This document shows, one piece after another, positions 9,439-19,034 of a stretch of DNA of 59,812 nt. The position numbers and the translations under genes are program-made. A model generated the notes under the pieces. The model made no database searches, was not told the origin of the DNA, and worked only from the letters and a program-made list of their open reading frames with translations. This DNA is from Omnitrophica WOR_2 bacterium GWF2_43_52 (GTDB lineage: Bacteria > Omnitrophota > Gorgyraeia > Gygaellales > UBA12090), in NCBI GenBank assembly GCA_001805445.1, contig MHGF01000036.1, positions 96,010-155,821 of the forward strand, in the 5' to 3' direction. Position 1 is the first letter of the stretch, and each line of letters starts with the position of its first letter.

Positions 9439-9756
9439 ATGGCCGGAAAAACATACTGTAAAAATCCTGATATGGTATACCGTAAGATTGCTGATGAACT
9501 TATCTTGGTGCCTGTGCGCAAGCAATCCGCCGATTTGAATGCTATTTATCTTTTAAATGAAACTGCCGGCTTTATCTGGGAGCTTATCGACCAAAGGAGC
9601 TTTGAGGAAATAGCCCGGATAGTTAATGGCGCCTATGATGGCGGTTTGGAAACTATTCAGGATGATGTGCGTTTCTTTTTAGAGCAGTTAGTCCAGATCG
9701 GGGCTGTACAGGAAGCAATAGCTGATGGCCGCACAAGTAGTACCGCTTTTAAATAA
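9439..9756 (+). CDS. PqqD-like peptide chaperone (RRE-type), copy 1
   Basis: 105 aa. YRKIADELILVP...IYLLNETAGFIWELID...FEEIARIV...VRFFLEQLVQIGAV matches the PqqD-family pattern. Confidence 0.7.
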   Translation: MAGKTYCKNPDMVYRKIADELILVPVRKQSADLNAIYLLNETAGFIWELIDQRSFEEIARIVNGAYDGGLETIQDDVRFFLEQLVQIGAVQEAIADGRTSSTAFK

Positions 9757-10564
9757 AAATTTCCTGCCTCTTGTAGGGGAGATACTTGCCCACGGGAATT
9801 CCCTGCGATTTAAAGCCAGCGGCAGGAGTATGCTGCCGGTGATTAAGAGCGGGGATATTGTAGAGGTTGGCCCGCTTACTAATGAAATTATCATAGGGGA
9901 TATTCTTCTCTATCGAAACTCTCGCTCTGAGGCTGTGGTGCACCGGATGATAGGCCGTGTCCGAGGAGAAAACCAAGTATTTTTTTTAGTTAAGGGCGAC
10001 TCATCAAGTGAGACTGACGAGCTTGTATCCGAAGCGCAGATTCTCGGTAAGGTCATTGACATTCATGCCAAGGCCAGAGTATCTTTTCGCAAGAGTTTAA
10101 GCATTATTTTTCATAAGATTCAGAGTTTGCCATTATATGCAAGATTAGCGAAAGCCTTTATCCAACCGCGGGAAGCATTTACCTTTGAGATAAAAGAAGC
10201 GCCTGGGATTACCTATCTTAGCCTTATGAGGCAAGGCAGGCTCATAGGATCTATGGAATTGTCTAAGGATATAGTATATAAGGACGCTTTGATCGTAAGT
10301 TCTCTTTGGGTGCACTGGGCATACCGCAGGGCGGGCCTTGGTAAAAGGATGATGAAAGAAGCTTTTTCCTATGCGCATAAAGAAAGAGTAAGGGAAATCA
10401 GGTTGTTTATCTCAAAATTTAACCGTGCGGCAATGGCGCTTTATCAAAAGCTGGGGTTTGTAGTGGTAGATACCGGTACCAAGAGCGGCTATGGCCTTGA
10501 TTTTATACAATTAAAGAGAGATGTTGAGAACGCTTCTTGCGATACCCCCGAAATATGGAATTGA
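9725..10564 (+). CDS. S26B/S24-type serine peptidase fused to a GNAT acetyltransferase
   Basis: 279 aa. N-terminal half has SGRSMLPVIKSGD (Ser nucleophile context), VVHRMIG and VKGDSSSETD, as in archaeal/ER-type signal peptidase I. C-terminal half has WVHWAYRRAGLGKRMMKEAF...ALYQKLGF, a GNAT core. Confidence 0.62.
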   Translation: MAAQVVPLLNKNFLPLVGEILAHGNSLRFKASGRSMLPVIKSGDIVEVGPLTNEIIIGDILLYRNSRSEAVVHRMIGRVRGENQVFFLVKGDSSSETDELVSEAQILGKVIDIHAKARVSFRKSLSIIFHKIQSLPLYARLAKAFIQPREAFTFEIKEAPGITYLSLMRQGRLIGSMELSKDIVYKDALIVSSLWVHWAYRRAGLGKRMMKEAFSYAHKERVREIRLFISKFNRAAMALYQKLGFVVVDTGTKSGYGLDFIQLKRDVENASCDTPEIWN

Positions 10565-12017
10565 TTACCCTCCGTTAGGTACCCCTGCCCTTACCGGTTA
10601 TCTAAAATCACGCGGCATTAGCGTAAGACAGGTTGATTGGAACAGCGACTATCATCGCTTGGGGTTTTTAGCCAAAGAAATTAATAGAAAAAGCCCTTAT
10701 GGCCATCTCCTGCCTTCGCAAGAGTCCAAAGATCTCCCTTACCAAGATGCCGCCTATTCTTCATTTTGGTTTACCGAGCGCCTTTTATCTTCTGAACTGC
10801 TTATCCCTTTTATCCGCGATAAGAAAGAAAATCCCTTTCATAGTTTTATCCTGGAATGCCGGCTGCTTGAGCAAATAAAAAGTTGGGATACCCAGGTATT
10901 AGGGATATCCATTATATCTCCTTCACAGGTATTGTTTAGCTTTACGCTTGGGTATCTCTTAAAGGCCTCAGGTGGCGCGGCGCATAGAGTTATTGGCGGG
11001 CAGTGGGTATCGTTGTATCGTAACCAAATAGCTCAAAGGGATGATTTTGGCGAGTTTTTTGATTATGCTATGTTTTTTGAGGGAGAAAGCGCTCTCTTTA
11101 AGCTTATTTCGGCATTGTCTACGCATAGCAAAGATATGGAGAGTGTTCCTAATCTTATGTATAAAGAAGGACGACATTTTGTCTTTAGTAAGCAACACTC
11201 TGTAGAGAAGATGGATGAGTTGCCCGCGCCTGATTTTGAAGGCTTGCCTTTGGTTTCTTATAATAGTTCGTCTCACGAGAGGATTTGCTTAACCTTTGAA
11301 ACTTCCCGGGAATGCTATTGGAATAAGTGCGCCTACTGCGTAGACCTGCCGCATCCTAAGCAGGGATATAGGCATAAGCCTCCTGGGCTTGTGGTGCAGG
11401 ATATGCGCATATTGCTTAGTACCTATCCTCTTGGTGATTTGATGATTTCTGACCCGGCAATGTCCCCGCGGCAGATGCTGGGAGTTTCTCAGGAAATTAT
11501 CCGTCAAAAACTGCAAGTTTCCTGGTGGTGTTTTTGCCGGGCAGATAAGGGGTTTAACAAAGAGGTGTTTTTAGCGGCTAAAGAGGCAGGGTGCCACTCG
11601 GTTTCTTTTGGCTTAGAAACAGCCAATCAAAGGCTGTTGGATTTCTTGAGTAAGGGTATCAATCTGGATAGTGCCAAGAGGGTTTTTAGGGATTGCCATG
11701 AAGCAGGGCTTAATGTCCAACTACAAATGATGATTGGCCTTCCCACGGAAACTGTGCAGGAGGCTCTTGAAACGATACATTTCCTGGTAGAAAACAGGAA
11801 GATAATCCAGCAGGTTACTTTTAATGTGTATTATCTTACCCCGGGGTGCTTGATTGCCGGGGATTTGGCAAGGTATGGAATTAGCGCTAAAGAAAGCAAT
11901 CTGCCGTTTGAATTCTTCAGGGAATTTTCTTATTCCCCCGCGGGGATGACTAAAAAGGAATCCTATTCACTTATTCGTCTCTATAATATTCTGATGGAGC
12001 AGTACAGTGTAACATAA
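10521..12017 (+). CDS. Radical SAM protein with N-terminal B12-binding-like domain
   Basis: 498 aa. N-terminus LLAIPPKYGIDYPPLGTPALTGYLKSRGISVRQVDWN (B12-binding-domain style). Cluster motif SRECYWNKCAYC (CX4CX2C) at nt 11313-11339. Later SVSFGLETANQRLL. Confidence 0.72.
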   Translation: MLRTLLAIPPKYGIDYPPLGTPALTGYLKSRGISVRQVDWNSDYHRLGFLAKEINRKSPYGHLLPSQESKDLPYQDAAYSSFWFTERLLSSELLIPFIRDKKENPFHSFILECRLLEQIKSWDTQVLGISIISPSQVLFSFTLGYLLKASGGAAHRVIGGQWVSLYRNQIAQRDDFGEFFDYAMFFEGESALFKLISALSTHSKDMESVPNLMYKEGRHFVFSKQHSVEKMDELPAPDFEGLPLVSYNSSSHERICLTFETSRECYWNKCAYCVDLPHPKQGYRHKPPGLVVQDMRILLSTYPLGDLMISDPAMSPRQMLGVSQEIIRQKLQVSWWCFCRADKGFNKEVFLAAKEAGCHSVSFGLETANQRLLDFLSKGINLDSAKRVFRDCHEAGLNVQLQMMIGLPTETVQEALETIHFLVENRKIIQQVTFNVYYLTPGCLIAGDLARYGISAKESNLPFEFFREFSYSPAGMTKKESYSLIRLYNILMEQYSVT

Positions 12018-17444: not shown

Positions 17445-18247
17445 TATTGCCCCAGGGTTGCGTACTTACGGGCCTTTTTTAGGCTCAACGAGAATATGCG
17501 TAAGCTTAAAGGCGCAAGAATCAGGGAAAACAATGCCAGAAAAGTTATTTCTCTTTGTAATTGCATGATAGTATAGTTGCGGTATACCGCCAGTTCTATT
17601 GCCCGGATAGCATAGGTTATAGGGAAGAATTGAGCCAGGAATTGCAGCCAATCAGGAAGAATAGTTATCGGGAAGTAAACGCCGCTTATCAGCCCTTCCA
17701 TAGTACCGACTATCCAATTAAAGGGGTTTCCCCGTTTAAATAAAAGGGTAAAGCTCGCGGAAATTATCCCCAACGCGTTGAAAGAGCTGATAGAAAGAAG
17801 CATGATGATACCGGAGGATAGGATATTGATCTTAGAAAAGTCAATATGGAAGAGGTATACCCCAAAAATAATATAGAGAGCCATTTCTATTGCCGCGTTG
17901 ATTAAATTCCAGAGCCCCATTGAGAATAAGATAGTGTAAATTTTCGCGGGGCTTAACAGTATCGCCTCAAGCGTTCCCTGGACTTGTTCATTGTGGATTT
18001 GGCTGGAAAAAGAGCCCGCGCCAATGCCTATATAACTAAAGAACGCCATGGCTAAGAGGACATAAGAGAAATAGTTTACCCCGAATTCCTCCAAATGGCT
18101 TACTATAGTTTGGCCAAAGAGCCTGTCTATAAAGAAATAGCTGAGCACGCTTACCAGAACAGTAAAAATATTAAAAAGGAAAGATAACCGGTAGCTTGAT
18201 TCTACAAGGAAATCTTTTTTTAAAAAGGCAAAGGCAGTTCTAAACAT
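17441..18247 (-). CDS. ABC-2 type transporter permease
   Basis: 268 aa, about six predicted TM segments. Overlaps the ATPase gene by 8 nt. Confidence 0.75.
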   Translation of the reverse strand: MFRTAFAFLKKDFLVESSYRLSFLFNIFTVLVSVLSYFFIDRLFGQTIVSHLEEFGVNYFSYVLLAMAFFSYIGIGAGSFSSQIHNEQVQGTLEAILLSPAKIYTILFSMGLWNLINAAIEMALYIIFGVYLFHIDFSKINILSSGIIMLLSISSFNALGIISASFTLLFKRGNPFNWIVGTMEGLISGVYFPITILPDWLQFLAQFFPITYAIRAIELAVYRNYTIMQLQREITFLALFSLILAPLSLRIFSLSLKKARKYATLGQY

Positions 18248-19034
18248 AGCGCGATTTGGTCAAGGTAATAAATATTTCTCCTAAGCCGGCGGCGGGCTTA
18301 TCCACGAATGTTCTTAGCTCATCCAGTGTCCCCATGCCAAGGATTGTTCCTTTGCGCAGTATCATAAAGATATCCGCGAATTCCATGGCCTCATCCATAT
18401 GATGGCTGGTAAAAATTACCGTTTTAGCCTCTTTTTTTACTAATTTGTCCCTGATAAAATTCCTTAGGTAAACGGCACTTGGGTAATCCAGGCTTTTTGT
18501 CGGCTCATCCAGCAAAATAAGCTCAGGATTATGGATAATTCCCCGCATCAGCGCGAATTTCCGTTTCATGCCTGTAGAATAAGAATCAAAGCGCTTATCG
18601 GCATAGTCAACCTCAAATAAATCCAGCAGTTCATCAATGCGCCTGCGGGTATTTTCTTTGTTTAAACCATAGAGTGCCGCGAAAAAATCCAGGTTTTGCC
18701 TTCCGGTAAGCCTCCAGTAGAAGCTTCTTTCTTCATCAAGGATAAGGCCGACGAAAGATTTTAACTTCTCATCGTCTTTTCCGGTGTGATATCCGTTGAC
18801 TATAATATCGCCTTGGTCAGGGAGGATGAGGGTCGCGATAATTTTAAGCAGGGTGGTTTTTCCCGCGCCGTTAGGGCCAAGGATACCCAGAATTTTGCCC
18901 CTCGACAAACCAAAGGAGAGGTTATCCAGCGCTTGTATGGTGATGTTTTTGGCCGCAAGGCCCAGGAGTGAGCGTAAAGAAAGCGGCGGCCTGAATTCCT
19001 TGGTAATGCCTGAGACGGTTACTATTGATTCCAT
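18240..19034 (-). CDS. ABC transporter ATP-binding protein
   Basis: 264 aa. Walker A GPNGAGKTT, signature YSTGMKRK, Walker B ILLDEPTKSLD. Confidence 0.92.
   Translation of the reverse strand: MESIVTVSGITKEFRPPLSLRSLLGLAAKNITIQALDNLSFGLSRGKILGILGPNGAGKTTLLKIIATLILPDQGDIIVNGYHTGKDDEKLKSFVGLILDEERSFYWRLTGRQNLDFFAALYGLNKENTRRRIDELLDLFEVDYADKRFDSYSTGMKRKFALMRGIIHNPELILLDEPTKSLDYPSAVYLRNFIRDKLVKKEAKTVIFTSHHMDEAMEFADIFMILRKGTILGMGTLDELRTFVDKPAAGLGEIFITLTKSRYV

Follow-up and report, generated by a model that had tools for sequence, protein, structure and literature searches.

We report that a cassette at positions 9439-19034 of the window, a 59.8-kb stretch of a groundwater-metagenome contig from Omnitrophica WOR_2 bacterium GWF2_43_52, is on balance probably a biosynthetic operon for a peptide made on the ribosome and modified after translation (a RiPP) of a large unnamed family. 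The original prediction, made from the sequence alone, had described an unclassified RiPP-like cassette, and our list of open reading frames (ORFs) for positions 7000-21500 reproduces each of the ten ORFs it placed there. Beyond that description, the cassette does not stand alone: it represents an elaborated version within a widespread family that is large, unnamed and uncharacterised, its kinase family can now be named (Pfam ScmC) and it is inserted in a polysaccharide export locus.

Related loci were collected by a scan of one genome per GTDB species, which returned 80 loci, and were typed by tblastn and iterated hidden Markov models (HMMs) built from the window proteins. The kinase is found in 47 non-redundant loci including the window (numbered with the prefix L below), and the gene order recurs in the 46 others, distributed over about ten phyla, among them Omnitrophota, Acidobacteriota, Chloroflexota, Nitrospirota, Nitrospinota, Verrucomicrobiota, Desulfobacterota, Fermentibacteria and Aminicenantes. 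This recurrence is far beyond chance. Five universal genes form the core of the family: PqqD, a radical S-adenosylmethionine enzyme of the SPASM type (rSAM/SPASM), the peptide, a ScmC-type kinase and an S24/S26 peptidase of the S26B type. An NTP_transf_5 nucleotidyltransferase is optional (about 17 of 47 loci), a convergent ABC-2 exporter pair is found in about 8 of 47 and a GNAT acetyltransferase in a handful. The neighbourhoods of three rSAM homologues that are 40-60% identical to the window enzyme, from an ENA metagenome, an Omnitrophica metagenome-assembled genome (MAG) and an Aminicenantes MAG, contain in this order PqqD, rSAM, a 54-57-aa ORF, a ScmC-family protein and NTP_transf_5, with or without an S24 peptidase, GNAT and ABC-2.

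The genes of L001 run in the order PqqD, S26, GNAT, rSAM, peptide, kinase, NTP_transf_5, and the window corresponds to this layout with three inserted genes, encoding a B12-binding-type rSAM, a UPF0489/TPR protein and a second PqqD. The inserted trio recurs in L088 (GCA_041642995), and this accessory module and an Arg-rich core are both kept in L088 and P0122. The tight packing originally described holds for most of the cassette, where genes overlap or are separated by at most 9 nucleotides (nt), and breaks down at two spacers, 12018-12152 (111-135 nt) and 16078-16235 (158 nt). Two of the related loci carry additional genes: a PDDEXK_3 nuclease-like gene lies between the rSAM and precursor genes of L088 (5119-5529), and a Y1 transposase immediately upstream of PqqD in L089 (8619-9470). 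Both hint that the cassette or its surroundings are mobile.

The 57-aa ORF at 14941-15114 (forward strand, like every cassette gene except the exporter pair) is a real gene, and its conservation and rigid motif spacing mark it as the precursor peptide. An AGGAGG Shine-Dalgarno sequence lies 7 nt 5' of its ATG, and the ORF shares 65 nt with the end of the rSAM gene. Three small ORFs (54-57 aa) from neighbour loci align with it. An iterated peptide HMM, run over all stop-to-stop segments, matches 37 of the 47 kinase-bearing loci but none of 37 control loci that have more distant SPASM enzymes and no kinase. In 34 of the 37 positive loci the peptide is directly downstream of the rSAM gene, so the expectation that a small Cys-bearing ORF would follow the SPASM gene in homologous loci is borne out. 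A word-indexed search with the 57-aa peptide returned three proteins only, and an exhaustive profile search was required: across 1.84 billion representative proteins it yielded 497 small-protein clusters at E <= 1e-3. The ratio of non-synonymous to synonymous substitution rates (dN/dS) between the window and L088 precursors is 0.17. A spurious small ORF was considered and rejected on the basis of the conserved position, the 497 clusters and the dN/dS. No NCBIfam model recognises the precursor.

Motifs were counted on the best 150 of the 497 profile matches. The lasso-type leader motif YxxPx[LIVM] is present in 141, C-[KR] in 149 and exactly three Cys after the motif in 128, while 142 (95%) end in Ser or Thr and 89 in Gly-Ser. 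The distance from the Tyr to the first Cys is exactly 20 residues in 157 of 158 peptides, and the modal spacings are 13 for C1-C2, 6 for C2-C3 and 5 from C3 to the end. Within this framework the inter-Cys segments are hypervariable, and acidic residues make up 3.4% of family cores. The leader follows the pattern K-x-x-Y-x-K-P-x-[LIV]...L-x-P-E-E-A-V-L, which includes the lasso-type YxKPx[LIV] (YIKPSL at residues 9-14 of the window precursor), and the sequence before the first Cys reads P-E-E-A-V-L-[G/T/A/S]-[N/A/G]-C-K throughout the family. Signal peptidases follow a (-3,-1) rule. A cut after [G/T/A/S] would place Val at P3 and a small residue (Gly, Thr, Ala or Ser) at P1; because this fits the rule, we infer that the core starts at Asn28. 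The window precursor would accordingly consist of a leader of residues 1-27 and a predicted core of residues 28-57, NCKTAGGRGTVNRSCDKFNRCSGRTSANGS, with four Arg. A sub-group from Nitrospiraceae and Verrucomicrobiota (L035, L038, L040, L026 and L039) has two or three SPASM paralogues per cassette and variant precursors (...ACSLMASNPMAGG...C...C...) that end in RPS or IS and have no Lys after the first Cys.

Family calls for the cassette proteins were made from Pfam and NCBIfam scans against curated cut-offs, in bits where given. Both PqqD ORFs pass the Pfam PqqD model (cut-off 23.4), as had been anticipated. The family-typical copy of this RiPP recognition element (RRE), PqqD1 (9439-9756), scores 55.0 bits (E = 1e-14) and shares 28-49% identity with the PqqD encoded upstream of the rSAM gene in most of the related loci. 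PqqD2 (13592-13867), part of the accessory module, scores 51.2 bits (E = 1.6e-13), and its best NCBIfam match is ScmD at 39 bits (39.2, cut-off 100). The core maturase at 13872-15005 matches Radical_SAM and can be kept as an rSAM/SPASM enzyme, though Pfam SPASM gives no match: C39, C43 and C46 of the CxxxCxxC motif and seven further Cys (C255, C273, C309, C312, C318, C321 and C340) are invariant in an alignment of 16 sequences. Its closest solved relative is the thioether-forming sactisynthase SkfB (E = 5e-23), and its best full-length NCBIfam match is MftC (94.6 bits against a cut-off of 265). The SkfB relationship and the three conserved precursor Cys would fit thioether links of the sacti or ranthi type. 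A second radical SAM/SPASM protein (Pfam SPASM E = 2e-15) is encoded at 43575-44726 of the window, after DegT and among sugar-modifying genes; extra SPASM genes also lie near the cassettes of L089 (19824-20981) and L008 (9751-10155).

The protein at 15121-16077, a core gene product, had been called HPr-kinase-like. By sequence this link is weak: HprK_rel_B matches the window copy at E = 3e-6, and the HprK_rel_B, HprK_rel_A, ScmC and hpr-ser models give 15-35 bits over the window and its relatives against cut-offs of 125-240. A profile search of PDB sequences with the kinase gave P-loop noise and marginal HPrK matches only, and a search by fold was required. An AlphaFold2 model built with 40 homologues has a predicted local distance difference test score (pLDDT) of 85 and a predicted TM-score (pTM) of 0.85, and all 34 Foldseek matches in the PDB at E <= 1e-3 are phosphoenolpyruvate carboxykinase (PEPCK) or HPrK/P, with E from 7e-7 to 1e-3. 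Walker A (G-x-S-G-x-G-K-S-T) and a preceding H-x-C-G (H142/G145) are invariant. A Walker A preceded by H-x-x-G, together with the modelled fold, identifies the protein as a probable HPrK/PEPCK-fold P-loop kinase. A profile search found at least 889 relatives, all annotated 'hypothetical'; precomputed Pfam assigns PF27840 ('ScmC') to most of the 120 kinase relatives listed and marks the match of the window copy as 'faint'. The kinase is universal in the family, as is the C-terminal Ser/Thr of the precursor, and this co-occurrence suggests that the kinase acts on the C-terminal Ser.

In the window copy, the LSDDRVIV strand is followed by an in-frame insertion of about 28 aa, missing from homologues, which is disordered in the model and lies next to the Walker B region. 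It consists of two tandem in-frame copies of a CCCTCCC/GGGAGGG hairpin repeat (15680-15790), a repeat that also occurs in the spacer between the B12-type rSAM and UPF0489/TPR genes (12025-12120), with a weak third copy at 9005-9026. These repeats resemble mobile palindromic elements of small size to which surface loops are tolerant. In P0226, the closest kinase relative, a different insertion of a similar kind ('PLRKGRDIPW') is found at another site. The kinase ORF contains at 15259-15306 (codons 47-62), 145 nt 3' of the precursor stop codon, a perfect palindrome of 24+24 nt with a T-run behind it. Its RNA fold has a free energy of -42 kcal/mol (z = -7.5 relative to shuffled sequences). It resembles a bidirectional intrinsic terminator and could attenuate transcription after the precursor gene.

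The gene at 9725-10564 encodes, as originally described, a signal-peptidase-like protein of the S26B (SipW/Sec11) type fused to GNAT, with both halves above their cut-offs (Peptidase_S24 26.4 against 23.3; GNAT 52.5 against 20.7). The best NCBIfam match of the peptidase half is the archaeal/SipW-type signal peptidase I. Of 42 homologues, 37 keep the catalytic Ser of the S-M-x-P motif and all 42 the H-R pair, the arrangement of the endoplasmic reticulum/SipW type (S26B). Read by eye, the sequence has no N-terminal hydrophobic segment, and we therefore take it as a cytoplasmic leader peptidase. Peptidase and GNAT are separate genes in L001; their fusion in the window suggests acetylation of the newly formed amine.

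The nucleotidyltransferase-fold enzyme at 16236-17444, an accessory protein, had been described as NTP_transf_5-like and matches PF14907 at 153.7 bits against 31.2 (E = 9e-45); a sequence search of the PDB with it returned nothing. It carries GDIDILV, a DxD motif that we equate by analogy, without an alignment, with the DxD of PsmN from pseudomycoidin biosynthesis. In the Omnitrophica locus L003 (12146-14467), NTP_transf_5 is found within a 773-aa protein that also bears a SAM-methyltransferase domain and, by tblastn, an S26-like segment at its start, another tailoring-enzyme fusion. In the window, the 158-nt spacer preceding the NTP_transf_5 gene contains at 16160-16232 a 17-nt perfect inverted repeat (TACCGAGGCTCAGCCTT / AAGGCTGAGCCTCGGTA) that flanks two tandem copies of CAGCCTTGACACAGGTT, each with TTGACA within it; this may be an operator or an internal promoter. 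A convergent exporter on the reverse strand follows, consisting of an ABC-2 permease identified by Pfam scan (17441-18247) and a DrrA-like ABC ATPase (18240-19034; TIGR01188 E = 1e-60, under the cut-off), in agreement with the original reading. Pairs 36-60% identical to it follow NTP_transf_5 in L003, L008, L012, L037, L078 and L089.

Two accessory tailoring enzymes complete the window's version of the cassette. The UPF0489/TPR protein at 12153-13595, whose start follows from the public gene call of 480 aa, matches its predicted family (PF12640, 35.1 against 27), but the label needs correcting: the protein is a peptide arginase homologue with TPR repeats. Newer Pfam releases rename PF12640 as FlmR_OhkR_N. 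The single PDB match of its N-terminal 240 residues is the peptide arginase OspR (8brp), and NCBIfam NF052474 matches at E = 1.7e-11; the score on the exception-level FlmR/OhkR model of NCBIfam is 44, under the cut-off of 350. Three motifs characteristic of peptide arginases, DXHXD, EEH(N/H)EAF as well as LDIDxDYF (PMC12703449), can be read in the sequence as HIDSHFD, ENHNEAL and LDIDVDYFV. For the protein at 10521-12017, predicted to be a B12-binding-type rSAM, the Radical_SAM assignment stands (E = 7e-11) while the B12-binding match is sub-threshold. Its best NCBIfam match is the RiPP C-methyltransferase family rSAM_ocin_1 (E = 8e-27), and the PhpK-type methyltransferase family also matches (E = 1e-23), both under their cut-offs; we regard it as a putative C-methyltransferase. 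The gene is also present in L088, L005, L023 and L025.

To place the cassette among known systems, we compared it with several classes of peptide clusters. Like the paeninodin, pseudomycoidin and Bsf lasso-peptide clusters, it combines an RRE of the PqqD family that is a separate protein (B1 in those clusters), a leader whose YxxPxL motif is about as far from the core, a precursor with a Ser end, an HPrK/PEPCK-fold P-loop kinase, an uncharacterised nucleotidyltransferase-fold enzyme with a DxD and an ABC exporter. In lasso leaders the YxxPxL motif occupies positions -17 to -12 (PMC10368454). In pseudomycoidin, PsmK phosphorylates the side chain of the precursor C-terminal Ser, and the phosphate receives one or two hexoses from PsmN, an uncharacterised nucleotidyltransferase whose catalytic motif is DxD (PMC6993621); BsfK and BsfN form a homologous kinase/nucleotidyltransferase pair (PMC10368454). 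Unlike the lasso clusters, the cassette has a SPASM rSAM in place of cyclisation and an S26B peptidase for leader removal, and its kinase appears to fall in Pfam ScmC rather than Hpr_kinase_C. As originally stated, neither an Asn-synthetase-like cyclase nor a transglutaminase-like B2 protease was found in the cassette or in about 43 other window ORFs scanned. The predicted core, beginning NCKTAGGRGTVN..., has no Asp or Glu at positions 7-9 (G, R and G there), counted from the predicted boundary. A lasso peptide was rejected on these grounds: no cyclase or B2 protease in the window and no ring-forming acidic residue.

Several cassettes defined by curators are relatives. SynChlorMet (Scm; NCBIfam TIGR04248-04251, defined bioinformatically) shares a PqqD homologue, one or more PqqE-like SPASM rSAMs and a ScmC-type protein. 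To our knowledge its precursor was never identified. The window cassette differs in having one SPASM enzyme, not two, and in its precursor, S26B peptidase and NTP_transf_5. The Scm cut-offs are missed (ScmD 39.2/100, ScmE 74.8/400, ScmF 51.1/400), and the NCBIfam ScmC model gives no match for the window and 18.9-34.5 against 125 in its relatives. GeoRSP (TIGR04302/04303, with HprK-related kinase B TIGR04355) and HPr-rel-A (TIGR04352/04353) share the logic of PqqD, SPASM rSAM and HPrK-related kinase. Scores for these are 5-10 times below the cut-offs (22.7-23.9/100, 79.9/400, 26.6/200), HprK_rel_A and PqqD_rel_X do not match the window, and the window cassette belongs to a distinct subfamily. 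Mycofactocin and pyrroloquinoline quinone (PQQ) models fall short as well (MftC 94.6/265, PqqE 69.2/381, PqqD TIGR03859 23-30/46), and the precursor is unrelated. Membership in SynChlorMet, GeoRSP, HPr-rel-A, mycofactocin or PQQ was rejected on the ground that all curated cut-offs are missed by large margins, and the cassette is a relative of Haft's SynChlorMet and GeoRSP cassettes and of HPr-rel-A. The original prediction recognised no named RiPP class in this enzyme combination, and that holds: no curated model for SynChlorMet, GeoRSP, HPr-rel-A, mycofactocin or lasso peptides reaches its cut-off, and we found no description of the cassette in the literature available as searchable full text, a search that most subscription journals lie outside.

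With sactipeptides and ranthipeptides (SkfB, AlbA, CteB, PapB) the cassette shares a SPASM rSAM and a Cys-containing core; it differs in its separate RRE protein, which in those systems is an N-terminal enzyme domain, in its unrelated precursor and in the predicted addition of C-terminal phospho-tailoring. The arginase homologue shares the three signature motifs of the OspR/FlmR/OhkR enzymes (landornamide and the 'DD(I/V)LF' orphan RiPPs) but has a C-terminal TPR array, a radical-SAM/kinase cassette around it and a different precursor family. By analogy, the cassette looks like a cross between the maturation machinery of sacti- and ranthipeptides and the tailoring arm found in paeninodin-type lasso clusters.

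The lasso-type leader motif, the C-terminal Ser and the kinase/NTP_transf_5 pair, with a SPASM rSAM replacing cyclase and protease, lead us to propose a pathway, each chemical step of which we infer from the computed gene content, synteny, conservation and fold. The 57-aa product would be the substrate. Its leader would be bound by the discrete PqqD recognition protein, which would present the peptide to the SPASM rSAM for cross-linking of the three conserved Cys, most likely through sacti- or ranthi-type thioether bridges. The ScmC-family kinase would phosphorylate the C-terminal Ser on its side chain, a reaction that PadeK, PsmK and BsfK carry out on lasso peptides, and NTP_transf_5 may decorate the Ser phosphate in the way that PsmN does with hexose. 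The cytoplasmic S26B-type peptidase would then cut the leader after A-V-L-[G/T/A/S], the fused GNAT would acetylate the new N-terminus and the convergent ABC-2 transporter would export the product. The window's extra module would add C-methylation by the B12-type rSAM and, by the TPR arginase, conversion of Arg to Orn at some of the four core Arg, and contributes the second PqqD. This is consistent with the chemistry originally predicted (a peptide cross-linked, possibly C-methylated, leader-cleaved, N-acetylated and phosphorylated or nucleotidylated), to which the conversion of Arg to Orn is added because the UPF0489/TPR protein resembles arginases.

The window cassette is embedded among genes for extracellular polysaccharide (EPS). 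Upstream are a histidine kinase and a response regulator, then an AAA_22-type ATPase (7439-8284) and a divergent HD-domain-like protein (8281-9429), both on the forward strand and contiguous with PqqD1 (gaps of at most 9 nt). The ATPase resembles the XrtA/PEP-CTERM-associated ATPase (TIGR03015, 246.7 against 324.5). Its gene overlaps the next by 4 nt and is possibly part of the cassette transcript, and homologues adjoin the cassette in L001, L003, L004 and L088. The HD-like protein, with no Pfam match of its own, ends 9 nt before PqqD1 and is 24-32% identical to HD_5- or HD-annotated neighbours in L003 and L004. Downstream are a MerR gene, a Poly_export (Wza-like) gene and a Wzz/tyrosine-kinase (Wzc-like) gene found by library scans (19492-22298, forward strand), Wzy and a Wzx flippase, followed by about 30 kb of glycan-synthesis genes, comprising glycosyltransferases (GT1, GT2, GT4, GT9, GT87 and the GT-C enzyme PMT_2), FkbM methyltransferases, DegT, WbqC, PIG-L and Glycos_transf_4; this stretch also encodes the second SPASM rSAM, a further two AAA_22 ATPases and a secretin. 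The operon is inserted in this polysaccharide export and biosynthesis locus and probably co-transcribed with it.

A Poly_export/AAA_22/Wzz neighbourhood adjoins the cassette in L001, L003, L005 and L088, where the Poly_export/Wzc pair is likewise adjacent. L037 has Wzc only of that pair, with Wzy and a flippase also adjoining, and the L004 and L089 cassettes lie within other glycan genes. Four EPS markers of the window are below the XrtA/PEP-CTERM cut-offs (246.7/324.5, 132.8/180, 143.5/278.9, 128.9/230.7), and no exosortase is present among the window ORFs scanned. A family-wide EPS association was examined and rejected, as the 129 neighbour proteins of 36 loci outside the window's clade belong to heterogeneous families. 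A different neighbour recurs instead: giant proteins of 1000-3100 aa with a C-terminal Peptidase_C25 domain (gingipain/PorU family) and DUF11 or SdrD-B repeats adjoin the cassette in 19 of 47 loci (L024:75-9500, L025:1681-9696, L013:12150-18473, L007:12084-15086 and 15 further loci), and in L009, L013 and L019 the S24/S26 peptidase is fused to the N-terminus of the giant protein. No C25 protein is encoded in the 59.8-kb window.

Elsewhere in the window, the three AAA_22 paralogues of the locus are at 7439-8284, 48781-49668 and 52853-53725. The end of the locus (55452-58141) encodes a coiled-coil protein, a weak match to the type II secretion system protein T2SS-C and a secretin (56135-58141), a group that suggests that a channel for secretion across the outer membrane is attached to the polysaccharide locus. 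Positions 696-4352 hold acyl-CoA dehydrogenase and EtfB/EtfA-ferredoxin genes of ordinary metabolism, unrelated to the cassette.

Several points weigh against the proposed pathway. The kinase is only weakly linked by sequence to HPrK and the lasso kinases (15-33 bits), its Foldseek TM-scores are low (0.2-0.47), and the window copy, with its insertion of about 28 aa and a terminator-like hairpin within the ORF, could be impaired. SPASM enzymes catalyse many reactions, and for Cys-rich cores thioether formation is no more than the commonest precedent. The boundary between leader and core is taken from a rule for membrane signal peptidases, and the placing of NTP_transf_5 in the PsmN family follows the descriptions in papers rather than a direct alignment with PsmN or PadeK. 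The EPS association is confined to the window's clade (about 12 loci) rather than being family-wide, and the chemistry is extrapolated for all members of the family. An anti-phage defence system was also considered and rejected: with PADLOC defence models the cassette proteins give generic matches only (the rSAM core to pVip, the P-loops, ABC) and no specific match.

Position within a polysaccharide locus makes it likely that the product acts at the cell surface or in the matrix. One alternative is that it is a secreted antimicrobial or signalling RiPP, with the EPS position reflecting co-regulation with biofilm genes or a chance mobile insertion. This concerns the role only and is compatible with the biosynthetic mechanism proposed here. 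ABC-2/DrrAB-type exporters are typical of bacteriocin export and immunity, histidine kinase/response regulator pairs and a MerR gene flank the cassette, and there are signs of mobility in the Y1 transposase beside the L089 cassette and the PDDEXK gene within that of L088. The window itself looks like an insertion between the ATPase/HD and Poly_export/Wzc pairs, which are adjacent in L003. However, no immunity gene is evident, and the same neighbourhood is found in divergent genomes whose cassette proteins are 33-60% identical, which is hard to reconcile with chance insertion; we consider this role rather unlikely, though the least so of the alternatives. It is also conceivable that the modified peptide is itself a covalent component of the polysaccharide, its C-terminal Ser-phosphate, glycosylated by NTP_transf_5, acting as a primer, cap or anchor for the glycosyltransferases of the locus to build on or, alternatively, as a tether of the polymer. 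The cassette lies between or next to Poly_export, AAA_22 and Wzz/Wzc genes (window, L001, L003, L005, L088) or among glycan-synthesis genes (L004, L089) and in the window is contiguous with the ATPase and HD-like genes (gaps of at most 9 nt), PsmN-type enzymes make Ser-phospho-hexose, NTP_transf_5 is enriched in the EPS-embedded clade, and the locus encodes a PMT_2-type GT-C enzyme. Yet with its own lipid-linked priming enzyme, Glycos_transf_4 (50535-51572), Wzx flippase and Wzy, the locus has no need of a peptide as primer; the cassette brings an exporter of its own, and most members outside the window's clade have no glycan genes nearby. We know of no precedent for a modified peptide in such a role, which we regard as improbable.

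A small redox cofactor or other intracellular metabolite, made from the peptide on the PQQ or mycofactocin model and not exported, would account for a discrete PqqD working with a SPASM rSAM that lacks a fused RRE, the architecture of PqqD/PqqE and MftB/MftC. On that model a PqqD chaperone, a SPASM rSAM and a peptidase would cut a modified fragment out of the peptide. MftC is the best full-length NCBIfam match, the conserved C-terminal dipeptide recalls MftA, and such a rigid framework would be unusual in a RiPP of the antibiotic type. Against this, all scores are far below the cut-offs (MftC 94.6/265, PqqE 69/381), the inter-Cys segments are hypervariable, three conserved Cys over about 25 residues argue for a folded peptide, the window's clade has a dedicated ABC-2 exporter, and no partner dehydrogenases recur nearby in the neighbour scan. 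The chances of a cofactor precursor are accordingly slim. Slimmer still are those of the cross-linked peptide being an inhibitor or partner of C25 peptidases, with x-C-K-small as a reactive-site loop and Lys at P1. Gingipains are specific for Arg or Lys and the reactive site of bovine pancreatic trypsin inhibitor (BPTI) has Cys14-Lys15, so that C-[KR] in 149 of the 150 best precursors, and giant C25 proteins beside 19 of 47 cassettes and sometimes fused to the S26 peptidase, would fit. But the 59.8-kb window has no C25 protein, and a C25 protein could equally be a leader protease or an unrelated surface protein. The RiPP operon proposed here remains the reading that we prefer.

Taken further, and only tentatively, we hypothesize that the family amounts to a RiPP class of its own, new and with 500 or more precursor clusters spread over about ten phyla, most of them uncultivated: rSAM cross-linked three-Cys peptides with a phosphorylated, sometimes glycosylated or nucleotidylated, C-terminal Ser, and a structural or regulatory rather than antibiotic role at the cell surface that would be coupled to EPS export in the window's clade and to giant C25 surface proteins elsewhere.

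The enzyme types are individually familiar, while the family they form is large and coherent. It provides a concrete conserved precursor for the PqqD/SPASM/HPrK-like-kinase cassettes that curators had flagged and that were never tied to a substrate. If the predicted chemistry is right, a pair of C-terminal-Ser kinase and nucleotidyltransferase known only from lasso peptides would have been recruited to work with a scaffold-forming enzyme of another kind. Members of the family occur in Omnitrophota, Acidobacteriota, Nitrospirota, Chloroflexota, Desulfobacterota and further phyla whose natural products are poorly explored. Its recurrent placement in EPS loci or beside giant C25 proteins suggests a function other than antibiosis, and such a non-antibiotic role, if true, would be of wider interest for the biology of biofilms and the cell envelope.

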